A DNA stretch of 64,000 nt from a virus (taxonomy: Duplodnaviria; Caudoviricetes). The position numbers and the translations under genes were made by a program. This document shows, piece by piece, positions 5,145 through 40,737 of this stretch; the stretch's first letter is position 1; the number at the start of each line of letters is the position of its first letter. The DNA is taken from IMG/VR virus record IMGVR_UViG_2802429733_000002, positions 26,091 through 90,090 of that record. One strand, written 5' to 3'. Below the pieces are notes generated by a model. That model saw only the letters and a program-made list of their open reading frames with translations, did not search any database and was not told where the DNA came from.

Positions 5145-8100
5145 CTACCTCCAGAACGACAGGGAGCCGTTGTTGAGGTCGAGCACGACGCGGCGATTGA
5201 CGCCGTCCGAGGCGAGGGCCGCCGAGACGACCTGGCCGGCATCCACGATGACCTGAGATGTTCCGTTGCTCATGGCGAGCACCGTAAAGCCGGCCCGGGC
5301 GTTGCTGGCCTTCACGCTCAGGGCCCATGCGGCCGTAGCCCCCGATGGAGCCGAGACAGCGACGAAGGCGAGCTTACCGCTCGCGGTCATGTCGTTCGCC
5401 TTCGCCTCGATCTCGGTGACCGTGCCAGCGACCGCGGTCACGGCGTTCTGCGCGGCCTCCGCCTTCGTGTCGGCGGCATTCGCCTTGGTCTGTGCCGCCA
5501 CGGCCTTGCCGTCGGCGGTGGAGGCGGCCGTCGCGGCGTTGCTGGCCGCGGTCTGTGCGGCGACCGCTTTCCCATCGGCCGTCGACGCTGCTGAGGCCGC
5601 ATTGGAAGCAGCCGTCTGGGCTGCCACAGCTTTTCCGTCGGCCGTGCTTGCCGCGGACGCCGCATTGCTCGCTGCCGTTTGAGCCGCGACCGCCTTGCCA
5701 TCCGCCGTCGAGGCAGCCGAGGCGGCGTTCGACGCGGCAGTGGCCGCATTCACGGCCTTCCCGTCTGCCGTAGCGGCCGCGGAAGCGGCATTGTTCGCCG
5801 CCGTGATCGCCGCCGCTGCGTTGCCGGCAGCCCCGGCCGCAGCAATTTCGACGGAGCTGACCCGAGAAGAGAGCGACGGGTTCTGCGGCGTCCCGTTGCC
5901 GTTAAGGGTCAGTTCGAGGTTCCCCACGCGGGAAACAAGGCCTGAGGCGGGACCGTCCGGTCCTGCCGCCTTGCCGACGACCTCGGCAAGAGTCGTGAGC
6001 CGCGCGCTGATCGATGTCGGCCCTGTTCCGGAGACGGCCGTCTGCAGGTCCGACAGCTGGCGGACGAGGCCTGTATTTGGATCGGTCGTGACCTCTTCGA
6101 GCGTGGTAATGCGCCCCGTGATCGAACCGGAGCCGGTCCCCGTGCCGATCGTGCCCTCGATCGTGGACAGACGGCTGACGACGGACGAGGGGTTCTGCGC
6201 GTTCGTGGTGACGTTCTCGAGGACGCCGATGCGCCCGGCCGCCGCGCCTGCCGCTGTTTCGAGGGCTCGCTGCGCCGACGCCGTCGCGACAAAGCCGTTC
6301 GACATCACCTGCTCGAAGGACGAGAAGCGCGCAGCCGCGTCCCCCTGGACCGCAAGAATGGTTCGCCCGCTCTCCGCGATGACCTCGCCCATCTCCCCGA
6401 TCCGGGCACCGAGGGTCAGGGTCGCGGTACCGAGCCGCTCGTTGACCCCACCTTCGAGCTCCGCCACCCGCGCGAGCAGAGCGTCGAGCGTCAGGTCCCT
6501 CGCATCGCCGTCGAACTTCACCGCCGCCGTCGACGCGGACGCGACGATCGAGCCGAGCGCGTTGAGCTGCAAGACGGCGTTCGAGACCTGGCCCGTGAGG
6601 GTGTTGACCGAACTCGCCAGCGACGTGATGGTCCCCTCCGGCCCGGTCAGCGTCGTGCTGAGGGTCGTGACCCGGCCGTCCACCTCGTCGAGCTGCGCCG
6701 TCGTCGCCCGGAGCGCGATCTCGCCGGCAACAGCGTCGAGGGAAACGGACAGCGAATTGAGCGTGTCGAGGATGCCGTTCAGGTCCCCATCGACGATCGT
6801 GGAGGCGAGCAGGGAGACCCGGGCATTGAGCGCGTCGAGGTCGATGGCGACGCTATTGATCCGGCTGTCGAGGATGGCCTCGCCAGCGATCCTGTAGGCG
6901 CCCTCCGACTGGACGACACCAATCTGCACCATCATCCCCTCGAAGGAGTTGAGGCGGTTCTGGGCGTCGGCGAACGCGGCCTGGATGAGGTCGAGGTCGT
7001 CTCGGAGCGAGCGCGCAACGAGCTTCGAGCGCGTGCGGTCCGCCGGGTTGGAGGACAGGGCGAGCTTGAGGTCCTCGATGTTCCCGAAGGCCGAATTTGC
7101 CCGCGACTGCGCGCTGTTCGCGACGTTGAGGGCTTCACCGATCGAGCCCGGCCCGGTGCCTTCGAGCAGCCCCCGGAAATAGGCGTCGATCTGGTTCAGG
7201 GTGACGTTGACGATGTCGACGGATCCGCCGTCGACGCGCGGCGGGACCGTGGAGAAGGTCGTATAGGTCCAGTCCCCGGGAACGCCGGTCCGGCCTATCG
7301 CGCGGCCGCGGACGCGCACCGGCAGAGGCGATTGCCGGATGACCACCGATCCCGACGCGCTGGCAAGGGCAGTCTGCACCTCGGTCCAATCGGTCGCGGG
7401 CATATCGACTTCGTCGATCGCGTACTGGACGTCGAAGGCGACCGCGCCGAACGGCTGCGGGACGCTCCAGACCATCTGGATGTCGGTCTCCGTGCGCTCG
7501 CACCAGGCTCGGATCGAGGGCAGGTTCGGGCGAAGGGGCTCGACAGGCCCCTCGGGATCGATCGGTCCGGGAACGACGGTCTCCTCCCCGAGGATCTGCC
7601 AGACCTTCGGGTTGTCGATGACCATCTCGATTTCGATGTGGTCCTCGCTGACGGGCCGCGTCGAGCGGGCGATGTAGGTCTCCTGAAGCTCGACGAGCGG
7701 GCCGATCGTCAGCGTGTTCGGCTCCTGCAGCTCGCCCGTCAGGACGTCCGCGAGGAGAACGCCGGTCGCGGCCTGGATGTTGCTGACGTCCGTCGCGTTG
7801 AGCGTGAGGCGCGTGCCGCCGTCATAGACCGCGCGCAGGATGCCCCACTCGTTTCCCTCCTTGCCGCGCAGCGAGACATAGGTGTTGCCGGCGGCGATCG
7901 GCGGCGGGGCCTCGACCTCGAAGGTCGTGCCGGACACGAGCCGGCCCGGTAGCGCGGCCTTCGCGTCCACGAACCAGAGATCGGACAGGATGTGCGTGGC
8001 GGGGTAGATGAGCCTTCCCTGCCACTCCGTCGTGATCGTGCGCTCGGCGCCGCGGAACTTGTCGATGGCCGACAGCCAGTTCGCGAGCATCACCGCATGC

Positions 8101-9914
8101 GCGCCGGAGGTGACGCCGGGGAACTTGTAGCGCTTGGGCGTGCGGGTCTGAGAGAACTTGGTCTGCCGGGCCTCGTCGGGGCGCTTCTCGTCGCCGTCCC
8201 GGAGGTATTCGACGATGACGTCGCCCTTCGAGGAATCGGACTTCGTGAAGATGAAGCGCTGGGCGGTCGTGTCGGCGAGGATCTGCTGCCGGGTGATGAC
8301 CTGCCGGCCGCCGGCCTCCTCGGCGCTCTCGTCGCGCATGAAGCTGTAGATCTGGCCCAGGCGCTGATGCTGGGCGCGCAGCGGGCCGAGGACGGTGTTC
8401 AAGGCGACGCCGAACGTCGTCACCTCGTCGAGGAAGCCGTTGAACTCGTCGAAGCCGGCGAGGTCCGCCCGGTTCGCATAGGCGAGGCACTTCTCGCCAT
8501 CGACCCCGTCCGGCCGGTTGAGGCCGTAGGGCGAGCGGATCAGGTCCGCGAAGGCCCAGACGGCCTTCCGCGTCGGCTGCTCCACCCACGTCGAGCCATT
8601 GAAGACGGGCACGATCCGCTCCGCCTCGACGCGGACCTCGCCCAAGGAGGAGATGCCCTTGATGCCGGAGACGCGGATGACGACCTCGGTCGTCCCCTCG
8701 CGCACGCGGACGTCCGGCAAGAGTGCGGAAAGCTCGTCCCAGTAGACGGTGTTCGACGCCTCGATGCCGATCATACTCGGGTCGGGCCAGGGATTGCACG
8801 AGCGGACCTGCCACTCCGCCATCTCCGGCAGGGTCTTCTCGCGTCCGAAGTGGCCGCCCTCGGGCAGGCACTGGTAGCCGATGTTTTCTGCGTCCGTGAT
8901 GATGGGGCCAGTGGGGTTGCCCGTGACCGGATCGAGGCGCTGAAATTGGAAGGAGATGCCGAAATTGTTCGGCTTCGCCTCCCCCTTGTCGCCGCGGACC
9001 ATGACGGTGCCGAAGCTCCAGGCGAGATAGAGCTTGTCGGCCTTCACCCCGTGCGGGGTTGCCCGATACCAGGGTGTCCAGTCCGGGTTCCCGTATGAGC
9101 GCGGCAGTTCCTGCCCGATGACGCTCTCGCTCGTCGCGATATCGCCGGGCACGATCTTCGAGGCCTGCTCGTAGAGGACCTCGACCTCGGACGGGATGCC
9201 GAAGAGCGACGAGACGTTGAACGGCGACTGGACGCCGCCCGCCTTCGTCCAGAAGGTGCTCTCGCCGACCTTGACCGCGAGGACGTCCCACTTCCCAAGC
9301 CCGACCAGCAGGCGCTTCACGAGAACGGTTTGCTTGTTCCCGATGTATCGAATGAAGTCTCGCTGGGAGAGCGGAGGCGTCGACCAGCATCGCCCGTAGC
9401 CGAGCGGGCGGCGCGCGCCGCGCTTCGCCACGTTGCCGGACGGCGCGATGTCGTAGAACGAGTTGTCCGTCTTCTTCGCGGCGTTCGACTTCGCCGCTGC
9501 GGCCTGCAGCAGGGCCGCGCCGATGACCATGCCCGTCTGCACCGCGAACCCGATAAGGCCGCCACCGACCGCCGCCGCGGCCCAAGGCGCGAGGAGAAGC
9601 AGGGCCGCAGAGGCGATCATCAGCGCAACCGACAGGCCGCTGCTGCCGCCCAGAGCCGGCCGCACGAACACGACATGGTCGTCCGGACCGACGAGCGTCG
9701 TCGCGTAATCCGCCCGCATCCTCGCGGCCTGGTCGAGATCGGCCCGCGTGAGGGCGGCGAGGTTCACCTTCTTCCGGAAGACGAGCGCGACCGTGGCCCG
9801 GTCCTTCGGGGCATGCTGCTTGACGATGGTCGACAGCCGCCGACGGCGCCGGGGCAGCGCCTTCGCCTCACCGAGAGGCTTGTGCAGGTTGTCGACTTCG
9901 AGGACGAGGGTCAT
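5145..9914 (-). CDS. Tail tip / host-specificity protein J-like (central fibre), ~1589 aa
   Basis: Start reassigned to ATG 9914 (ATGA overlap with NlpC stop); NVAKRGARRPLGYGR, FN3-like segment, long C-terminal coiled coil. Confidence 0.85.
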   Translation of the reverse strand: MTLVLEVDNLHKPLGEAKALPRRRRRLSTIVKQHAPKDRATVALVFRKKVNLAALTRADLDQAARMRADYATTLVGPDDHVVFVRPALGGSSGLSVALMIASAALLLLAPWAAAAVGGGLIGFAVQTGMVIGAALLQAAAAKSNAAKKTDNSFYDIAPSGNVAKRGARRPLGYGRCWSTPPLSQRDFIRYIGNKQTVLVKRLLVGLGKWDVLAVKVGESTFWTKAGGVQSPFNVSSLFGIPSEVEVLYEQASKIVPGDIATSESVIGQELPRSYGNPDWTPWYRATPHGVKADKLYLAWSFGTVMVRGDKGEAKPNNFGISFQFQRLDPVTGNPTGPIITDAENIGYQCLPEGGHFGREKTLPEMAEWQVRSCNPWPDPSMIGIEASNTVYWDELSALLPDVRVREGTTEVVIRVSGIKGISSLGEVRVEAERIVPVFNGSTWVEQPTRKAVWAFADLIRSPYGLNRPDGVDGEKCLAYANRADLAGFDEFNGFLDEVTTFGVALNTVLGPLRAQHQRLGQIYSFMRDESAEEAGGRQVITRQQILADTTAQRFIFTKSDSSKGDVIVEYLRDGDEKRPDEARQTKFSQTRTPKRYKFPGVTSGAHAVMLANWLSAIDKFRGAERTITTEWQGRLIYPATHILSDLWFVDAKAALPGRLVSGTTFEVEAPPPIAAGNTYVSLRGKEGNEWGILRAVYDGGTRLTLNATDVSNIQAATGVLLADVLTGELQEPNTLTIGPLVELQETYIARSTRPVSEDHIEIEMVIDNPKVWQILGEETVVPGPIDPEGPVEPLRPNLPSIRAWCERTETDIQMVWSVPQPFGAVAFDVQYAIDEVDMPATDWTEVQTALASASGSVVIRQSPLPVRVRGRAIGRTGVPGDWTYTTFSTVPPRVDGGSVDIVNVTLNQIDAYFRGLLEGTGPGSIGEALNVANSAQSRANSAFGNIEDLKLALSSNPADRTRSKLVARSLRDDLDLIQAAFADAQNRLNSFEGMMVQIGVVQSEGAYRIAGEAILDSRINSVAIDLDALNARVSLLASTIVDGDLNGILDTLNSLSVSLDAVAGEIALRATTAQLDEVDGRVTTLSTTLTGPEGTITSLASSVNTLTGQVSNAVLQLNALGSIVASASTAAVKFDGDARDLTLDALLARVAELEGGVNERLGTATLTLGARIGEMGEVIAESGRTILAVQGDAAARFSSFEQVMSNGFVATASAQRALETAAGAAAGRIGVLENVTTNAQNPSSVVSRLSTIEGTIGTGTGSGSITGRITTLEEVTTDPNTGLVRQLSDLQTAVSGTGPTSISARLTTLAEVVGKAAGPDGPASGLVSRVGNLELTLNGNGTPQNPSLSSRVSSVEIAAAGAAGNAAAAITAANNAASAAATADGKAVNAATAASNAASAASTADGKAVAAQTAASNAASAASTADGKAVAAQTAASNAASAASTADGKAVAAQTAASNAATAASTADGKAVAAQTKANAADTKAEAAQNAVTAVAGTVTEIEAKANDMTASGKLAFVAVSAPSGATAAWALSVKASNARAGFTVLAMSNGTSQVIVDAGQVVSAALASDGVNRRVVLDLNNGSLSFWR
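5480..5800 (-). repeat. Five tandem ~63-bp (21-aa) repeats ASNAASAASTADGKAVAAQTA within J
   Basis: Read directly in the translation; DNA copies differ mostly at third codon positions. Confidence 0.9.
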
Positions 9915-32418: not shown

Positions 32419-33936
32419 ATGGCCTATGTCGATTCCGTGGAAGCATCTGCGACGGCGCCGCGCGAGCCGGTGGACGCGTTCGGCCCGATCTATCCCGCTC
32501 TCAACGCGACGGTGGCAAAGGGCCGGCGGGTTGCCGATCCGACACGGGAGCAGCGGCGCGCGCATGGCGAGGCCGTCGGCGCGGCGATTCGCGAACTGCA
32601 GCGGCGCGAGCTGCAGCGTGAGGCGCCTCCGCATCGGTGCCCGTGCGCTAGCGGCACCTGGCATTCGGGCGATGACCTGACGAAGGCGATTCGTCGCCAG
32701 CATGACGCGGCGCTGCAAGCCCAGGCGAAGGCGGACCGGGCACGGCGGACCGATGCACAGGTGATGGCGCAGTATGAGGCGGCCATGGCGGAGCGGCGCG
32801 CCCAGGAAGCGGCGCTCGCGGCGGGCGGGGGTCGTATAGCGGAATCGGAGGCCGCCCGTCCTGTGAAGTCGAGCGCCCGCGGGCGGGATCCCATGGAAGC
32901 CGCCGTGATGAAGGCGGATCCCGCATTGCTGCGGGATGTCCTGCGGCGGGAGCCCGCCGGCCGCCTTCGTGATCTCGCCGCGGCGCGCCTGGTCGAACTC
33001 GAGGCGGGGCCCGGTCCTGTAGCGGCATCGGATGAGCCCGCGCCGGCCCTACAGGTTGGGCGGGAGAATCGAAATGGCTCTGTAGCGGCGGGCGATGCCT
33101 CGGATGCGGCTCCTCGCGGAACGATTGAGAAAGCGGAGGACGACGGCTCGCTCGTCTCGGCCCCGATGCTCGTCCGCGACCCCGTATGCCCGCCAGCAAC
33201 GTCCGGAGAGGCATGCGTGGCCGATATGGGGATTCCCATAACGGGCGAAGCCGCAGCGGCCGCGCTCGACGACGCGGAGTGCCGGGAAGGCCCCGATAGC
33301 CCTGTACGGGCGTCTGAAGGCGTCCGGCGCCTTGGCGAGGCCGGAGGGTCCTGTACGGTCGTGTCAGGATCAGGCGGACCAAACGATCGTCGGTCGGGCC
33401 TCGCCGATGCGATCCGAATGCCGAGCGATCCAGTCGCGCGCGGCCTGGCGCGCCTTGGGCTGGGTTTCGCGAGAGACGTGCAGGTTGGGGATGCTCGGGC
33501 AGGTGTAGACGTGCTGGTCGCCTTCCTGGGCGTGGACGAGCCGGACCTTTGGCGCTCCGGGCTGCATACGGCCGCCTCAGGCCTCTCGCTGCCAGCGGGC
33601 ATGCTCTCCGCACCATCCGGAGACCCGCAGGATCGCCGTCATCGCCTTCAGCTTCGCGGACTCCCGACTCCATGCGACCTCGAGCAGCCAATCCGCGTCC
33701 GGGCTCGTCGCGACGGTGCGGCCGTCAGGGAGAGGATTGAAGACCAGCCGGATCGTGCCGCGCTGGCGGATGGCGAGCGCCGCCGCTTCCTGCGCGTCGC
33801 GGACGATGACCGAGGGATCGAGGGCGCTCATGGCCTCGCACTCTATCAGGGCTGGCCGCCTTGGATAGACCGTCCTGTAGGGGCGTGGTGTAGTGGTGAG
33901 ATCGATCGCGGGAGGGCGCAGTGTTCGGAAGACTGA
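32419..33936 (+). CDS. Hypothetical protein; N-terminal ~200 aa plausible, 3' third overlaps antisense genes
   Basis: 505-aa ORF with GAAGGA SD; helical Ala/Arg-rich N-terminus with HRCPC. Confidence 0.45.
   Translation: MAYVDSVEASATAPREPVDAFGPIYPALNATVAKGRRVADPTREQRRAHGEAVGAAIRELQRRELQREAPPHRCPCASGTWHSGDDLTKAIRRQHDAALQAQAKADRARRTDAQVMAQYEAAMAERRAQEAALAAGGGRIAESEAARPVKSSARGRDPMEAAVMKADPALLRDVLRREPAGRLRDLAAARLVELEAGPGPVAASDEPAPALQVGRENRNGSVAAGDASDAAPRGTIEKAEDDGSLVSAPMLVRDPVCPPATSGEACVADMGIPITGEAAAAALDDAECREGPDSPVRASEGVRRLGEAGGSCTVVSGSGGPNDRRSGLADAIRMPSDPVARGLARLGLGFARDVQVGDARAGVDVLVAFLGVDEPDLWRSGLHTAASGLSLPAGMLSAPSGDPQDRRHRLQLRGLPTPCDLEQPIRVRARRDGAAVRERIEDQPDRAALADGERRRFLRVADDDRGIEGAHGLALYQGWPPWIDRPVGAWCSGEIDRGRAQCSED
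33370..33567 (-). CDS. Small protein with HicB-N-like pattern
   Basis: VRLVHAQEGDQHVYTCPSIPNLHVSRET..ARQAARDWI. Confidence 0.5.
   Translation of the reverse strand: MQPGAPKVRLVHAQEGDQHVYTCPSIPNLHVSRETQPKARQAARDWIARHSDRIGEARPTIVWSA
33577..33831 (-). CDS. Small protein with HicB-N-like pattern
   Basis: IRLVFNPLPDGRTVATSPDADWLLEVAWSRESAKLKAMTAI. Confidence 0.5.
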   Translation of the reverse strand: MSALDPSVIVRDAQEAAALAIRQRGTIRLVFNPLPDGRTVATSPDADWLLEVAWSRESAKLKAMTAILRVSGWCGEHARWQREA

Positions 33937-34319
33937 AGCAGCGGTGGGCAGAGGCGAGAGGGGACGTCTTGCTCAAGGAAGTTGACGACGCCATACAGCG
34001 CGTGTCCAGGTTCCCGCCGCCCCTGCGACACTTCGCATCGACTGCTTTCCATGGCGCACTTGGGGATCTCACGAGCGGTAACGGCCCGGTGCGAACCTGG
34101 CATCCGGATATGAGGAAGCAAGCCGCCACGGAACTCAATCGGGCATCGCGACAGCTCTTTCGCAGCGCCACCGACAACGCTATCGGCGAGGCCTCAGTCG
34201 CCAGCTCTTGCGGCGGGGCGATATTGTCTCGCTACTTCGAAGCTCTAGACCTGCCCGGCACCCAGGCAGCAGACGCGGTTAAGATGATTGAATCCTGGGC
34301 CGAGATCGAGGGTTCGTAG
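33921..34319 (+). CDS. Hypothetical protein
   Basis: 132-aa helical ORF (GTG start), AT-richer codon use. Confidence 0.6.
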   Translation: MFGRLKQRWAEARGDVLLKEVDDAIQRVSRFPPPLRHFASTAFHGALGDLTSGNGPVRTWHPDMRKQAATELNRASRQLFRSATDNAIGEASVASSCGGAILSRYFEALDLPGTQAADAVKMIESWAEIEGS

Positions 34320-34488
34320 ATCCCCCGGGCGCTGAGCCTCGCTTGGCCTGCACTGCCCGTGACCCACACACGCTGCACACGAGCCGCTTCGTCAGCCGGA
34401 CGAGCGGCGGATCGTCGGGGTGCACCTCCCGCGTCGCCGTATGGCCACACCGAAGGCAGGTGATAATCGTAACGGGGCGGTCTGCCAT
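34279..34488 (-). CDS. Small Zn-ribbon protein
   Basis: CLRCGH..LVCSVCGSR (two CxxC). Confidence 0.7.
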   Translation of the reverse strand: MADRPVTIITCLRCGHTATREVHPDDPPLVRLTKRLVCSVCGSRAVQAKRGSAPGGSTNPRSRPRIQSS

Positions 34489-34535: not shown

Positions 34536-35216
34536 CTATCTGCGTCCGGCCTGTTGTGCGGCCGCATCAATCCAGCGGCCGATGTTCGCCGCGCCCGCGT
34601 TCCTCCAGTCGTACTCCATTGCGAAGCTGCTAAGCTCCATGATCTGGCCCCGACCCGGCGCCCGGATGTAGCGCGGCACACTGACAGGATCTCGGTGCCG
34701 CGCATATTGAACCCAGTTTCCGGCTACGCCTTCTCTCTCGCAGAGATAGAAGCGACCGCCCGCTTCATAAATACCCATATACCAGAGCGGGTTTGGTCCA
34801 TTTCCGTCGGGGCTCCTGCGAGCGTGGTGATTGATCCCATTGATGTGAACCACGAGCAGCCCCTTATTGTTTATGACGCTGCGCGCGATCTCATATCGCA
34901 CCCATGGCCGCTCCCATGTCATCGATCCTGCCAGTACGCAGACGACCGAGGTGTTCTTCACCCCTTGCCGGATCATTTGGCGAAGGGCCTCCTCGCCTTC
35001 CAGCTTCTTCTTCTCCCACAAGGACGCGTCGTAAAACTCGATCCCCCGGCCTCCGCCGCCTAGTATGGTGCCGCTGAATTCTTGACACATGCGAACATTG
35101 TTGACGCGCATGATGTCGGCGTAATGGAACGAGAAGAACACCCTTCGGTTCTTTAAGATTCCTAGACCACTCATGCCGCCGTAGATCAGCGGATTGCCGC
35201 CGAACGGCCTACCCAC
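34536..35216 (-). CDS. TIR-domain protein, Thoeris ThsB-like (DUF1863/MTH538 type); start may be ATG 35174
   Basis: RVFFSFHY..SVVCVLAG..TWERPWVRYEI (catalytic Glu intact)..KGLLVVHI..IGRWIDAAA. Confidence 0.88.
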   Translation of the reverse strand: MGRPFGGNPLIYGGMSGLGILKNRRVFFSFHYADIMRVNNVRMCQEFSGTILGGGGRGIEFYDASLWEKKKLEGEEALRQMIRQGVKNTSVVCVLAGSMTWERPWVRYEIARSVINNKGLLVVHINGINHHARRSPDGNGPNPLWYMGIYEAGGRFYLCEREGVAGNWVQYARHRDPVSVPRYIRAPGRGQIMELSSFAMEYDWRNAGAANIGRWIDAAAQQAGRR

Positions 35217-35643
35217 AGAACTGCCTCCTCGCCACGATAAAGAACAGCGCCAGCAACAGAGCTATGCAGCCGTAGAAATTCAGAATCGACCAGCTGCAGC
35301 AAGTCCGCCAGAACCCGATAGGCTCGCCCTTCGAAGGGTCGATAGTGAAGTCGGGCACCGCCGACCATGGTTCCGAAGCGGCCGATCGATAGAGGCCGCG
35401 GAAACGCTTCTCCATCCGCAGGTACTGCGCGTCGAGGAGCGCGAACCCCAGGATCGGGAGGAAGCCGACGAGGAGCACCAACGGCGCCTTGAGGGTGAGC
35501 GCGGCGCCAACGACCGCCGTGAGAACGGTCATGCAGAAGGTCTTCAAGCTGGCGCTATACGACGCCATGCGCGCGATGCTTCCGGTAAGCAGTTCGAGCC
35601 GCTTCACGCGCAGATCGGCGATCTTGTCTTCGGAAATGCCCAT
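35209..35643 (-). CDS. Membrane protein (3 hydrophobic segments), putative effector paired with the TIR gene
   Basis: RLELLTGSIARMASYSASLKTFCMTVL..FALLDAQYLRMEKRFRGLY..WSILNFY; overlaps the TIR gene start. Confidence 0.8.
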   Translation of the reverse strand: MGISEDKIADLRVKRLELLTGSIARMASYSASLKTFCMTVLTAVVGAALTLKAPLVLLVGFLPILGFALLDAQYLRMEKRFRGLYRSAASEPWSAVPDFTIDPSKGEPIGFWRTCCSWSILNFYGCIALLLALFFIVARRQFCG

Positions 35644-35714
35644 TGCCCGATGGGACCACCGTCGACCGCCGAACTCAAGAGGCTGTATCGTTGACTCCCA
35701 CATTCATTTCATGA

Positions 35715-35729
35715 GAACAAAATGCGAAC
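35715..35729 (-). promoter_or_regulatory. Alphaproteobacterial LexA (SOS) box
   Basis: Plus strand GAAC-AAAATGC-GAAC (minus strand GTTCGCATTTTGTTC) = GTTC-N7-GTTC consensus, ~70 bp upstream of the membrane gene. Confidence 0.7.
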
Positions 35730-35889
35730 TTAAATCGGGAGAGCCCCTAATGCTGGTCCTGGCCACGGATGGCGGCAAGCGCGTACCCAAGACCGTCGCG
35801 CTCGATGGAATGCCTCGCCCGTCGAGAGATCGTCGCGGGTGCATGGGCGTAGGATCCGAAGGCGACCTATGCTGTGAACTGAGAGGCCT

Positions 35890-37395
35890 TCATAGCGAAT
35901 CGGGAAACTGAGTTGACGCGCTGGCGTCGATCGAAGCCAGCAGAGCACTCCTTCTCGCCTGGGTCTCGCGGTAGTCCTGTGCTTCGACATCTCGATGAAA
36001 AGTGGCGCTGGGCGCTAGGCGCTTGAGAGCAGCCTCGACCTCATCGATGCTGGCGCGGAAGAACTCCTTTCGATAGTTCATCGCATTGATGCGCGTCGCA
36101 TCGAACTCGGCATGGAGCGCCCTCTCGAGGGTTGGCGCGTCGTCGCTATAGATCATAGCGTGGGTGTCGAAAATGAACGGCACGCTCGCATCCCCGAGTT
36201 CTCGCACCCGGTCTAGCGGATCAAGTCGCCGCGTGAGACCAATCTTCACAACGCCGTCGCCGAATGATCCCACGTTGGAAATCACATAGACCCATCCAGA
36301 CCGAGTCTTCTCCGCCATCGCCTGCGCGCGAGCCAGTTTGGAATGCGCGGCGGCAAGGTCTCGTTCCAAGATTGCGATCTGCTCGTTGAACGCCGCAAGG
36401 TGAGGGCCAGCGATGCTGTTCGCTTCCGCCTTGGCCTTGTCGAGAAGGCGCTGGTATCTCGCCTCTTCCTCCTCGGCGGCCTCTAGGTCGCGAAGCAGCT
36501 TCTGCTCTTCACGTGCTAGGCGGGCCTGCTCTGCGCGTTCCTCACGCTCAGCTCTTTGCTTCTCCCGCATTTCGTGCGTCAAGTATAGCTCACGTAGTTT
36601 CAGTTCCGCGTACTCTCGGCTGATCACCACCTGTTGCGACTCGTTCATTATGTCGATCTTGTTCTTGGCGGCCAGAATTCGGCTCTCCATTGCATTCACG
36701 TTGTTCCATCGCACATTTGCCACTGCAGCGTCGGCCTCGCCGTTGAACGCTCGCAGTGTAAGGCGGATCGTCCGGTTTATGAGTGTTTGGCCCTTCGCCA
36801 AGCTGCCGTCGACATAAATCTTCGCTTTGGAAACGACGGCGGTCTTCTCGTTCGCCATCATTTTCTGATGGGCGCGCGCAACGGACACCTCTTTCTTGTA
36901 CGCTTCGCTGTCCTCGAATTCAAAATGCGGCTCGTAGACACCAAGCTCAGCGAACGCGAGTCGCTCGTCATAAATGGCGACCTCGGCAACCAAGCTGTCG
37001 AACGTTGTCTTCTTCTCAGAGTATGCGCTCTTCAGCGATTCGATCTGCTTGAGGCGCGTAATTATCTCTGATCGCAGATTGGCAAGCTCATCCTCAATGG
37101 AATAGATCGGTTCAAGTTTTTCCTCCAATTCGACATTTCTTCGCTCAACCTCTGCAAGTGCCTTCAGCAGATCTGACTTCTGGGTATCCAGATCGGATGC
37201 TGAAGTAGCGCGTTGCTCGTCGAGCTCTCGGCTGTGCAGAGCGGCTTCGAATGCCCTGAGCTGTCGCTCCTCCGCAAGCTTCCGACGGACGTGGATCAGG
37301 AACAGCACGAGCGCCACGCACGCGCAGATCAAAGATGCCGCCCCCGCGATAGCGATTATGACCAGACTCTCCAAGGCACCCTCCCGCACGTGCAC
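35890..37395 (-). CDS. TM + coiled coil + DUF4041 + GIY-YIG (T5orf172-like) protein, SNIPE/PD-lambda-1-like anti-phage nuclease; likely start TTG 37374
   Basis: N-terminal TM; LRAFNGEADAAVANVRWNN (DUF4041); GWVYVISNVGSFG..VKIGLTRRLDPLDRVRELGDASVPFIFDTHA..RKEFF. Confidence 0.88.
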   Translation of the reverse strand: MHVREGALESLVIIAIAGAASLICACVALVLFLIHVRRKLAEERQLRAFEAALHSRELDEQRATSASDLDTQKSDLLKALAEVERRNVELEEKLEPIYSIEDELANLRSEIITRLKQIESLKSAYSEKKTTFDSLVAEVAIYDERLAFAELGVYEPHFEFEDSEAYKKEVSVARAHQKMMANEKTAVVSKAKIYVDGSLAKGQTLINRTIRLTLRAFNGEADAAVANVRWNNVNAMESRILAAKNKIDIMNESQQVVISREYAELKLRELYLTHEMREKQRAEREERAEQARLAREEQKLLRDLEAAEEEEARYQRLLDKAKAEANSIAGPHLAAFNEQIAILERDLAAAHSKLARAQAMAEKTRSGWVYVISNVGSFGDGVVKIGLTRRLDPLDRVRELGDASVPFIFDTHAMIYSDDAPTLERALHAEFDATRINAMNYRKEFFRASIDEVEAALKRLAPSATFHRDVEAQDYRETQARRSALLASIDASASTQFPDSL

Positions 37396-38683: not shown

Positions 38684-38973
38684 GCGGCGTCACGCTCCTC
38701 ATCGGGTCGTTGAGCAAGCTCGCGGCGGATCGCGGCGGCTTCCTCCTTCAGGGGGTGGATTCGCGCGTTGCAGTCGTCGAGCTGGGCGTAGAGCGGGATA
38801 CGGGCTGCCTTCGCATCGGCGGTCAGGTTCGGCGCGGGCAAATCCGGATGCGTCTGCCGGATGGCCTCGACGATCTCCTGCTGCTCGCGCCGGAGGGCCG
38901 ACAGAGACCAGCCGATCTCTTCGAGACGCTCCTTCAGCGCCAGCGCGTTGAGGCGTTCGAGAGGGACGATCAT
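38680..38973 (-). CDS. Hypothetical coiled-coil protein
   Basis: ATGA-coupled on both sides. Confidence 0.65.
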   Translation of the reverse strand: MIVPLERLNALALKERLEEIGWSLSALRREQQEIVEAIRQTHPDLPAPNLTADAKAARIPLYAQLDDCNARIHPLKEEAAAIRRELAQRPDEERDAA

Positions 38974-40535
38974 CGTCGCCTCCACAGGTCGTCGCCGTCG
39001 TCTCCGTCGTCTCCGCCGATCTCTGGATCCGGCGAGGTGAAAAGCCTGGTCCTGAGATCGAACTTCAGCGGGATCTCGCCTGGGCGGCCGGTCTCGGGCT
39101 GATAGCGGATTTTCTTGACCAGGATCGTCGAGGTGCCCTCCTCCCGTCCTTTCACGAGGATCAGACCCTGGTCAGCCTTGTTGGCGAAATGCGCGGAATC
39201 GGCGACGTCGTAGAGAGACAGGTCCTTGTCGCTCTTGAAGGTGGCGCCCTTCGAAGGATGGGCGACGATGATGACGAGGACGTCGAACCGGCGGGCGAAG
39301 GTCTTAAGGCGCCGTAGGGCTCGGCCGACGTACTCGGTGTGGGTCTCATCGGCCTTGCGGGCGTGGTCGACCTCGTTCCACGGGTCGAGCAGGAGCACGC
39401 GGGCGCCATGTCGGATGACGGCCGCCTCGGCCTTCTCGATCAACCAGTCGAGGTTCGTGTCATCGTCCGATTCCGGATCGGGCGCGATGAAGGTGAAGTG
39501 CTGCTCGACCCATGCGCGGCCGCGGGCCTTCTCCTCGTTGCTCCACGGCCGCGGGCGCTGGAGGTAGCCGGCGATCAGTGCGTCCCGGATGAATGGATTC
39601 ACGCGCATCTCGAATGAGGCGATGGCGGCGTTCCAGCGATGCTGGCTCGCGAGCTGGGCGACCATCTGCGTCGCGAAGGAAGTCTTCCCCGCGTTGGCGA
39701 AGCCGGTGATCACCATGAGGGACGGGTGATAGACGAGGACGTGAGCGTCGAGCTCGGGCCAGCCGGTAGAGACCGGGCGGAGCTCCGGCTCCGGCGGAAA
39801 CTCCGACAGCGTGTAGAGCCCGCGAACCGGATACGGCCTCGCTTGGCTGATGAGGTTGATCACGTGGCCGGGCCCGTGATGCAGCAGGACGTCGTTCAGG
39901 TCCTTGCAGCCCTCCGGATAGGCGACGAACGAGCACCGGACTCGGCCGAGGCGGCGAACCAGCTCGGCGGCGAGGCGCGTGCCGGGCTCGTCGTTGTCGA
40001 CCGCGATGACGATCCGCTTCACCCGCTGGAGCCTGTCCCAGTTGTTGAACACGAAGGCGAACTTGTCGTCGTTCTCGGGGTCGACGTCGTCGGCGTTCTC
40101 AGGGACCGCGATGAGGCGGCCATTTTTGTCTCGGGCCGGCGGCGCGCCATCGGGAACCGAGACGGCGAAGGGATATCCGGCCTCGATCACGGAGAGCGCG
40201 TCCATCTCGCCTTCGGTGATGACGAGCGCCGCAGTCGATGCCGCGAGCGCCGGGTCGTCGAGGATGTCCGAGTTGTAGAACGTCTTGCGGGGCTTCGGCC
40301 GCTGGTAGAACTTCTTGCCGGGCGCTCGGTACTTTTCGGCGACGACCTCACCTCGTTCGAAGAACGGGAAGGCGATGATGTTGCCATTGGGGTCAGGCTC
40401 GGTTGCGAAGCTCTGATCATCGCCATCGCGACGACGACGAGCGCTGTAGATCCCGGTACGAGTGACTGTCTCGGGTCCGATGCCCCTCTTTTCGAAGAAC
40501 TCGAAGACCTTCGGGTTTACCGCCTCGGTCGTCAT
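38970..40535 (-). CDS. Primase-helicase (TOPRIM + SF4 helicase; T7 gp4/Twinkle-like) lacking its Zn-binding domain
   Basis: LVITEGEMDALS, IAVDNDEPG, GCKDLND; Walker A GFANAGKTS, LLLDPWN, IIVAHP; own ATG 40535 with GGAG SD. Confidence 0.9.
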   Translation of the reverse strand: MTTEAVNPKVFEFFEKRGIGPETVTRTGIYSARRRRDGDDQSFATEPDPNGNIIAFPFFERGEVVAEKYRAPGKKFYQRPKPRKTFYNSDILDDPALAASTAALVITEGEMDALSVIEAGYPFAVSVPDGAPPARDKNGRLIAVPENADDVDPENDDKFAFVFNNWDRLQRVKRIVIAVDNDEPGTRLAAELVRRLGRVRCSFVAYPEGCKDLNDVLLHHGPGHVINLISQARPYPVRGLYTLSEFPPEPELRPVSTGWPELDAHVLVYHPSLMVITGFANAGKTSFATQMVAQLASQHRWNAAIASFEMRVNPFIRDALIAGYLQRPRPWSNEEKARGRAWVEQHFTFIAPDPESDDDTNLDWLIEKAEAAVIRHGARVLLLDPWNEVDHARKADETHTEYVGRALRRLKTFARRFDVLVIIVAHPSKGATFKSDKDLSLYDVADSAHFANKADQGLILVKGREEGTSTILVKKIRYQPETGRPGEIPLKFDLRTRLFTSPDPEIGGDDGDDGDDLWRRR

Positions 40536-40737
40536 AGAATGCTCCGCCTCGCCATTCGCAGTTGTGACAATAAAACTGGATGCCTTCACTATCGATTTTT
40601 ACCGACAGACACTTCTTTTTGCGGTTCGCCGGCTTCCTGCCCGCCGAACATTGCGGGCAGAGAGCCAAGTTGTTGCCGGCCTGCTCTCGCCGGAGATCTA
40701 TCCGGAAGCGATCGAGAAGTTCTCGGGCGGTCGGCAT
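40417..40737 (-). CDS. Stand-alone primase Zn-binding domain
   Basis: LCPQCS..CLSVKID..FYCHNCEWRGG; different frame from the primase-helicase. Confidence 0.8.
   Translation of the reverse strand: MPTARELLDRFRIDLRREQAGNNLALCPQCSAGRKPANRKKKCLSVKIDSEGIQFYCHNCEWRGGAFYDDRGGKPEGLRVLRKEGHRTRDSHSYRDLQRSSSSRWR

Follow-up and report, generated by a model that had tools for sequence, protein, structure and literature searches.

The window analyzed here, a 64,000-nucleotide stretch of DNA, holds a siphovirus-type prophage of an alphaproteobacterium. The first-pass annotation had proposed a prophage setting, and the expected tail, portal, capsid, terminase and primase-helicase genes are there. Genes for the tape measure, a minor tail protein, a collagen-like fibre, the portal, a head-protease/major-capsid fusion and the large terminase (TerL) lie on the minus strand at 12.6-28.4 kb, followed by three tRNAs at 29.9-30.2 kb. 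A primase-helicase gene is found at 38970-40589, and together with the gene for a replication protein it spans 39-41.7 kb. Between the replication and the tRNA/packaging modules, on the same strand as both, sits a pair of genes whose probable identity, argued below, is thsF-thsB of a Thoeris defense system. The features of the locus are as follows.

35209-35643, minus strand: thsF, for a 144-residue three-helix membrane protein and putative effector (PADLOC PDC-M50A); from PADLOC, BLASTP, hhalign, AF2 and an alignment of homologues.
34536-35216, minus strand: thsB, for a 226-residue TIR protein of the B. cereus MSX-D12 ThsB type; from Pfam, PADLOC, the match to 6LHY/9B7D and the position of the motif.
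35209-35230, minus strand: thsF/thsB junction, with the features of translational coupling; from direct reading of the sequence.
35715-35729, minus strand: GTTC-N7-GTTC word ahead of thsF that could be an alphaproteobacterial LexA box; from a word search.
35890-37395, minus strand: gene of PD-Lambda-1, a defense made up of one gene, which is context and lies outside the system; from PADLOC (1.2e-155) and Pfam (DUF4041, T5orf172).

The two genes are read in the order thsF then thsB, and they overlap, as had been claimed. The open reading frame of the membrane protein gene is 35209-35703, open up to an ATG at 35703, and the second Met codon, at 35643, is where homologues and the PADLOC profiles begin; that start gives 144 residues, the length first proposed. 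The start codon of thsB is a GTG at 35216 (35216-35214), 7 nt past the sequence GAGGAGG (35230-35224). The thsF stop codon, TAG at 35211-35209, overlaps the thsB start in the sequence GTGGGTAG. As read from this junction, the 8-nt overlap is typical of translational coupling. Overlapping open frames are usual in GC-rich DNA, and the other open reading frames listed across the stretch are of this kind. The GC fraction is 0.597 in the pair and 0.583 in the island as a whole (34536-37395), whereas the structural module reaches 0.662 and the replication module 0.653; the pair is indeed AT-richer than the phage backbone. The proposed "late accessory slot" holds in part: the genes do form an accessory low-GC cassette, but the slot is between the replication and the tRNA/packaging modules and is not a late one following tail or lysis genes.

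The thsB product matches Pfam ThsB_TIR at 4.7e-20 (cut-off 21.2 bits). Its best matches of solved structure are to ThsB of B. cereus MSX-D12 (6LHY/9B7D; phmmer E 2.3e-29, residues 24-216), in an alignment that takes in the C-terminal domain as well as the TIR domain. The WVRYEI motif of the window TIR aligns opposite WVRYEI of B. cereus ThsB, and the putative catalytic Glu within it is E109. The conserved Glu of B. cereus ThsB is E85, and an E85Q change abolishes signal production and defense (Ofir et al. preprint). By a count through the TIR string in Table S1 of the type V Thoeris preprint (introduced below) and the chain offsets, we infer that E109 corresponds to E85. The annotated ThsB-like TIR with an intact Glu is thus upheld, and the protein is a ThsB-type TIR with the conserved putative catalytic Glu that type V Thoeris requires.

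The thsF product contains three hydrophobic segments, at about residues 34-52, 56-72 and 117-139, matching the number originally proposed. An AF2 monomer model made with the family alignment (pLDDT 96.6) has three long helices, 5-51, 54-90 and 118-142. The protein belongs to a large family whose members are mostly 130-150 residues long; an exhaustive profile search found 4065 representative clusters with E <= 1e-3, of which 2068 have E <= 1e-10. In an alignment of 69 members, R25 (in IARMA) and E78 are invariant, and K34, D71, Y74, L75, R82, S117 and Y124 are at least 90% conserved. D71, Y74, L75 and R82 fall in the conserved block LDAQYLRxExxFR. A core that merely looked conserved in the single sequence is therefore conserved across the family.

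Does this membrane protein have relatives of known structure? None was found by a search of PDB sequences with the family profile, by Foldseek or by VIA-align. Foldseek of the AF2 model against the PDB gave nothing at E <= 0.001. A wide VIA-align search returned generic long-helix and hairpin proteins (ESCRT-III, coiled coils and designed bundles) at Z <= 9.3, which is below the noise quoted for helical models. The PDB sequences that matched the family profile were an MBP-fusion artefact and GFP, and nothing else. Pfam gave nothing above threshold for the window protein, and no PF10028 (DUF2270; gathering threshold 25 bits) match at E <= 0.1; a sub-threshold match to DUF2244 was taken as noise. 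Weak sub-threshold DUF2270 matches occur in 12 of the 69 family members. A comparison of profiles, in which DUF2270 was represented by canonical alphaproteobacterial DUF2270 proteins, revealed a remote similarity over the N-terminal helix and TM1-TM2 (hhalign 86.5%, E 4.5e-6, 51 columns). Canonical DUF2270 proteins differ in being longer, at about 184 positions, and in being conserved across whole alphaproteobacterial genera.

The identity of the pair emerges from recent work on Thoeris. Type V Thoeris pairs ThsB with ThsF, an effector with three TM segments to which the label DUF2270 was given (Yirmiya, Leavitt ... Sorek, bioRxiv 10.64898/2025.12.03.692087, Dec 2025). The validated type V systems are those of B. 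thuringiensis DAR 81934 and Bacillus sp. 1NLA3E, both of which defend against phages (bioRxiv 10.64898/2025.12.03.692087). A search with a 78-aa stretch from Table S1 of that preprint recovered the B. thuringiensis DAR 81934 ThsB (P0155), which is 100% identical over the stretch. The gene directly after this thsB encodes 141 residues (L025:3773-4198), and its assignment as the effector agrees with Table S2, where the TIR and its effector have consecutive IMG gene numbers. The B. thuringiensis ThsF so obtained is 31% identical to the window membrane protein over 131 aa (BLASTP E 4e-15), and it aligns with the profile of the window family over 130 columns (hhalign 99.9%, E 5e-35). Like the window protein it escapes Pfam, with no match at E <= 0.01, PF10028 included. 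Because both proteins miss the Pfam thresholds, the effector had seemed unassignable from sequence alone. The TIR gives similar testimony. Under "DUF2270 - Type V", Table S1 lists TIRs whose motif strings are near-identical to that of the window TIR (bioRxiv 10.64898/2025.12.03.692087); the window TIR shares 49% identity with a 78-aa stretch of one such entry, and that stretch is 70% identical to a TIR encoded next to a close homologue of ThsF in a MAG from an alphaproteobacterium.

Since the window ThsF is homologous to a validated ThsF, and the TIR is of the listed subfamily, the pair very probably belongs to type V Thoeris, in the order thsF-thsB. The putative effector has the features that type V would call for, namely homology to validated ThsF, a length of about 140 residues and three predicted helices. 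The preprint also has a separate "3TM" class of candidate effectors, and the listed examples of it that we examined all pair with a different TIR cluster (YNLFISHSW-type). Because the window effector is directly homologous to validated ThsF, we set this class aside and assign the pair to type V.

The same pair can also be found in PADLOC-DB v2.0, where the two proteins match models of PDC-M50. The adjacent genes match PDC-M50A (PDLC04686, 6e-19, plus three more A models) for the membrane protein and PDC-M50B (PDLC04688, 2.5e-40) for the TIR, the TIR also matching ThsB1 at 6.2e-40. PDC-M50 is a bioinformatic candidate without a described mechanism, and no paper found in a full-text literature search uses the name. 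Judged by its profile, PDC-M50A is the same family as ThsF, because the validated B. thuringiensis ThsF matches PDC-M50A at 1.8e-48. The first-pass annotation had suggested a PADLOC run, and had stated that a match to an already named system would refute its reading. The pair does match one, as PDC-M50 and as type V Thoeris, and its membrane protein, as a homologue of validated B. thuringiensis ThsF, can no longer be called an uncharacterised effector.

How tightly are the two families associated in nature? We used a profile of a five-member alignment to find close loci in genome contigs; the same profile found nothing in viral contigs. A TIR homologue lies just downstream of ThsF in nine of the eleven close loci, and in the other two the membrane protein gene is present only as fragments. 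Of 401 genomes sampled evenly across the phylum, eight carry the ThsF family, and a gene matching Pfam ThsB_TIR is adjacent, on one side or the other, in all six of the other informative loci with enough flanking sequence. Two further diverse ThsF members also adjoin a TIR, one of them beside a lambda-type terminase, and a temperate phage of the Vinavirales from Vibrio carries ThsB together with PDC-M50A. By contrast, none of 12 canonical DUF2270 loci has a TIR within 1.5 kb. The association on which the first-pass annotation had made its reading depend is thus found in every informative locus sampled: ThsF and ThsB families are near-obligate neighbors, with the conserved operon adjacency seen in type V Thoeris. 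Apart from the present genome, the ThsF family is absent from all 13 sampled genomes of the window's own taxonomic family. A patchy distribution of this kind is as expected for mobile defense genes.

The next gene upstream of the pair is that of PD-Lambda-1, which has a TM segment, a coiled coil, DUF4041 and T5orf172. Because PD-Lambda-1 adjoins the pair, the low-GC block is a small two-system defense island, PD-Lambda-1 plus type V Thoeris. This neighbor and the low-GC prophage cassette support a predicted role for the pair in protection against phages. PD-Lambda-1 was considered as a third component of the system and rejected, as was a Zn-ribbon ORF just downstream (34279-34488); neither is present beside the pair in 11 related loci. 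A flanking gene of 393 codons was used in a search for sister prophages and found no match in 300 sampled genomes of the order.

Comparison with the validated type V systems shows a strong likeness in plan: a two-gene operon, a ThsB TIR with a three-helix membrane protein of about 140 residues, and a defense-island setting. There are also differences. In B. thuringiensis thsB precedes thsF, whereas here thsF comes first and overlaps thsB. The window TIR falls in a cluster with the type I TIR of B. cereus, whereas the two validated type V TIRs fall in other clusters. The validated systems are from Bacillus chromosomes, and the present one, known from sequence, is in an alphaproteobacterial prophage.

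Other types of Thoeris offer partial likenesses. The TIR of type I Thoeris (B. cereus MSX-D12) is a near full-length homologue with WVRYEI in common, and the probable signal, 3'cADPR, would be common also. The type I effector, however, is the SIR2-SLOG NADase ThsA, whereas the window effector is a membrane protein. No SIR2-SLOG ThsA lies beside the window ThsB, whose neighbors are ThsF, PD-Lambda-1 and the Zn-ribbon ORF, and a search of the whole genome (99.2% complete) found no SIR2_2 domain. Type II Thoeris, with its TM-Macro effector, resembles the window system in having a TIR sensor and a membrane-anchored effector. Its signal is His-ADPR, made by a different TIR clade, and the window effector lacks a Macro domain; Pfam and PADLOC give no Macro or ThsA match for it. 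The first-pass annotation was thus correct that the pair has no canonical ThsA partner.

The same genome does, however, carry a complete type II Thoeris on contig C14, where a second ThsB gene accompanies a gene for ThsA TM-Macro. One might ask whether the prophage ThsB is simply an extra sensor for this host ThsA, with the membrane gene as holin-like or superinfection-exclusion cargo. In some known Thoeris loci several ThsB genes serve one effector, and the host effector is at hand. Yet the His-ADPR that the ThsA Macro would read is the product of another TIR clade, thsF and thsB overlap, and the membrane family, homologous to a validated effector, is a near-obligate ThsB neighbor across phyla. 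We regard an extra-sensor role as extremely improbable. Cross-talk between the type V pair and the type II system is possible, but it is unnecessary because thsF is coupled to thsB.

If the pair is type V Thoeris, how might it work? The properties of homologous systems suggest a path. Infection of the lysogen by another phage would be sensed by ThsB, which would then make a cyclic ADP-ribose signal from NAD+, with 3'cADPR as its most probable identity. This molecule would bind positively charged pockets at the protomer interfaces of a ThsF homo-oligomer that forms a ring in the inner membrane; R25, D71, E78 and R82, conserved and predicted to be cytoplasmic, are candidate pocket residues. Among basic residues, which such pockets would need, R25, K34 and R82 are the conserved ones noted. 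The ThsF assembly would open or otherwise disrupt the membrane, and the cell would stop before the invader completes its cycle. Such an abortive infection would protect sister lysogens and, with them, the prophage. The path is modeled on the results for type V systems. The type V TIRs tested make 3'cADPR on infection when expressed alone, adding 3'cADPR poisons cells that carry the B. thuringiensis system, type V defense weakens in the presence of the Tad1 sponge, and an AF3 model of ThsF is a heptameric channel with basic pockets between protomers (bioRxiv 10.64898/2025.12.03.692087). The abortive, TIR-signal-to-membrane scheme put forward in the first-pass annotation as protection for the lysogen is therefore sound in outline, as experiments with homologous systems show, though it is not novel.

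The direction of signaling might instead be reversed, with the TIR itself a toxic, NAD+-depleting NADase and the membrane protein a sensor, anchor or regulator. Many bacterial TIRs are indeed NADase effectors, in CBASS, Pycsar, pAgo and Avs systems, and the limitations section of the preprint allows this for configurations that are unverified. For type V the direction has been tested, however: the TIR alone makes 3'cADPR, and 3'cADPR triggers toxicity in cells that bear the system. The window TIR, moreover, belongs to the ThsB clade. A toxic TIR is very unlikely here, and we continue with ThsB as the producer of a signal and ThsF as its reader.

Is the signal specifically 3'cADPR? We think this likely, on the strength of the homologous systems, though with distinctly less assurance than the assignment to type V. 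Both type V TIRs that were tested produce 3'cADPR, and the closest solved relative of the window TIR is the type I ThsB of B. cereus, the founding 3'cADPR producer. The possible new signal of the first-pass annotation is not favored by these facts, the product of the tested TIRs being a known molecule. Signal identity is nonetheless the weakest step in the proposed path, because the 1NLA3E variant ignored added 3'cADPR and because the window TIR is in a different cluster from those tested. The Bacillus sp. 1NLA3E system is not intoxicated by added 3'cADPR even though its TIR makes 3'cADPR (bioRxiv 10.64898/2025.12.03.692087). This result raises the possibility that ThsF variants differ in the signal that activates them. 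The same TIR-to-ThsF logic might then run on 2'cADPR, canonical cADPR, His-ADPR or an undescribed NAD derivative, or call for a second infection cue. In other Thoeris types the signal is 2'cADPR, cADPR or an unknown molecule, and the window ThsF has only the 31% identity given above to the 3'cADPR-responsive ThsF of B. thuringiensis. We consider such a departure unlikely. A point against the wider type V reading is that the one proteobacterial type V system tested, from Vibrio cholerae ZWU0020, gave no defense in E. coli (bioRxiv 10.64898/2025.12.03.692087).

What, then, does the present locus add? PADLOC has listed the pair as a candidate since 2023, and the work of 2025 described and validated the system type, the effector family and the likely signal. 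The novelty of the present copy is confined to its context: a siphovirus prophage of an alphaproteobacterium, with PD-Lambda-1 next door, in a genome that also has type II Thoeris. The copy is useful as annotation, for it gives a temperate siphovirus in which a two-system defense island separates the replication genes from the packaging genes. With its type-I-like ThsB, this proteobacterial type V system is also a reasonable extra case for the question of which signal ThsF variants read.

How the pair is expressed bears on whether it functions at all. A consensus scan, which leaves phage and alphaproteobacterial promoters out of its scope, found no sigma-70-like promoter before the pair on the minus strand; a consensus scan likewise found no sigma-70-like promoter or terminator between the pair and PD-Lambda-1. 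One would think that genes without a recognizable promoter might be a decayed or silent passenger, and decay does occur in this family, as in genome G341, where a broken thsF lies beside an intact TIR. But in the window both open reading frames are full length, all residues invariant in the family are present, as is the putative catalytic Glu, and the strong Shine-Dalgarno sequence and coupling overlap are retained. Given also the restricted reach of the promoter scan, a dead cassette seems to us improbable in the extreme, and we take the pair to be a probable intact type V system. The GTTC-N7-GTTC word at 35715-35729 is the sole match in the window; chance alone would give 1.81, and the word turns up one or more times in 79 of 100 shuffles. 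It is doubtful, though conceivable, that thsF-thsB is under host SOS (LexA) control through this word, and/or that its ThsF variant reads a signal other than 3'cADPR. SOS control, if true, would mean that Thoeris is switched on mainly at prophage induction or upon cell damage.

The type V Thoeris pair of the prophage and the PD-Lambda-1 homologue directly upstream of it form a defence island, and the GC minimum of the region (0.53-0.57) falls within the PD-Lambda-1 homologue. Three neighbours of the pair are described here:

35890-37395, directly upstream of the pair: PD-Lambda-1 homologue (PADLOC 1.2e-155; DUF4041 + T5orf172/GIY-YIG-like)
34279-34488, same strand as thsB and 48 nt downstream of it: zinc-ribbon ORF, 69 aa, CxxC...CxxC
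32419-33936, plus strand, orientation opposite to the phage modules: candidate gene (ORF), 505 aa

The zinc-ribbon ORF, whose matches to Zn-ribbon Pfam families are sub-threshold only, is absent beside thsF-thsB in 11 related loci, and is therefore probably a phage gene that lies outside the Thoeris system. The 505-aa candidate gene has no Pfam or PHROG match, lies in DNA of very high GC (0.70-0.73), and is overlapped by long opposite-strand ORFs.

Might expression of the pair be tied to the SOS response? The sequence GTTCGCATTTTGTTC at 35715-35729, a GTTC-N7-GTTC word that precedes the ATG at 35703 by 12 nt and the probable start of thsF by 72 nt, has the form of an alphaproteobacterial LexA box. 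Because 1.81 matches to GTTC-N7-GTTC are expected in the window by chance, versus one observed, the word alone is not significant.

The bacterial genome carrying the prophage also encodes a complete type II Thoeris, at about 6740-8118 of another, short contig of about 8.2 kb (C14; L028:440-1818), so that the lysogen has two different Thoeris types:

C14, overlapping the ThsA gene: type II ThsB, 166 aa (PADLOC ThsB1 1.8e-73)
C14: type II ThsA TM-Macro, 292 aa (PADLOC ThsA1 6.4e-141; Pfam ThsA_Macro 5.5e-49)

Related pairs occur elsewhere. In the temperate, 14-kb Vinavirales phage 10N.286.55.A5_PE002 of Vibrio (PQ189363.1; locus L039:1332-2620), a ThsB gene annotated Thoeris__ThsB_Global overlaps an unannotated 147-aa gene, the product of which matches PDC-M50A, the PADLOC model for ThsF, at 1.4e-33. 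The two genes are a phage-borne type V Thoeris, and the same arrangement is found in two sister phages. The effector is still named hypothetical in PQ189363.1. In a sampled genome of the phylum, G341, an intact 212-aa ThsB_TIR gene adjoins a thsF homologue that is in two pieces (contig C6, about 352555-352922; L036/L038), one covering positions 4-46 of the profile and the other, in a different frame, positions 49-125; this is apparently a decayed copy.

Is DUF2270, the label used for ThsF in the type V Thoeris preprint, an apt one? The canonical Pfam DUF2270 proteins, represented by loci L002-L013 (E 1e-56 to 1e-69), are near-universal within a few alphaproteobacterial genera among the sampled genomes (e.g. 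6/7, 3/3), and no TIR lies within 1.5 kb of their genes at these loci. As a family they seem to be housekeeping membrane proteins, with no more than a remote relationship to ThsF; the label is therefore loose for ThsF.
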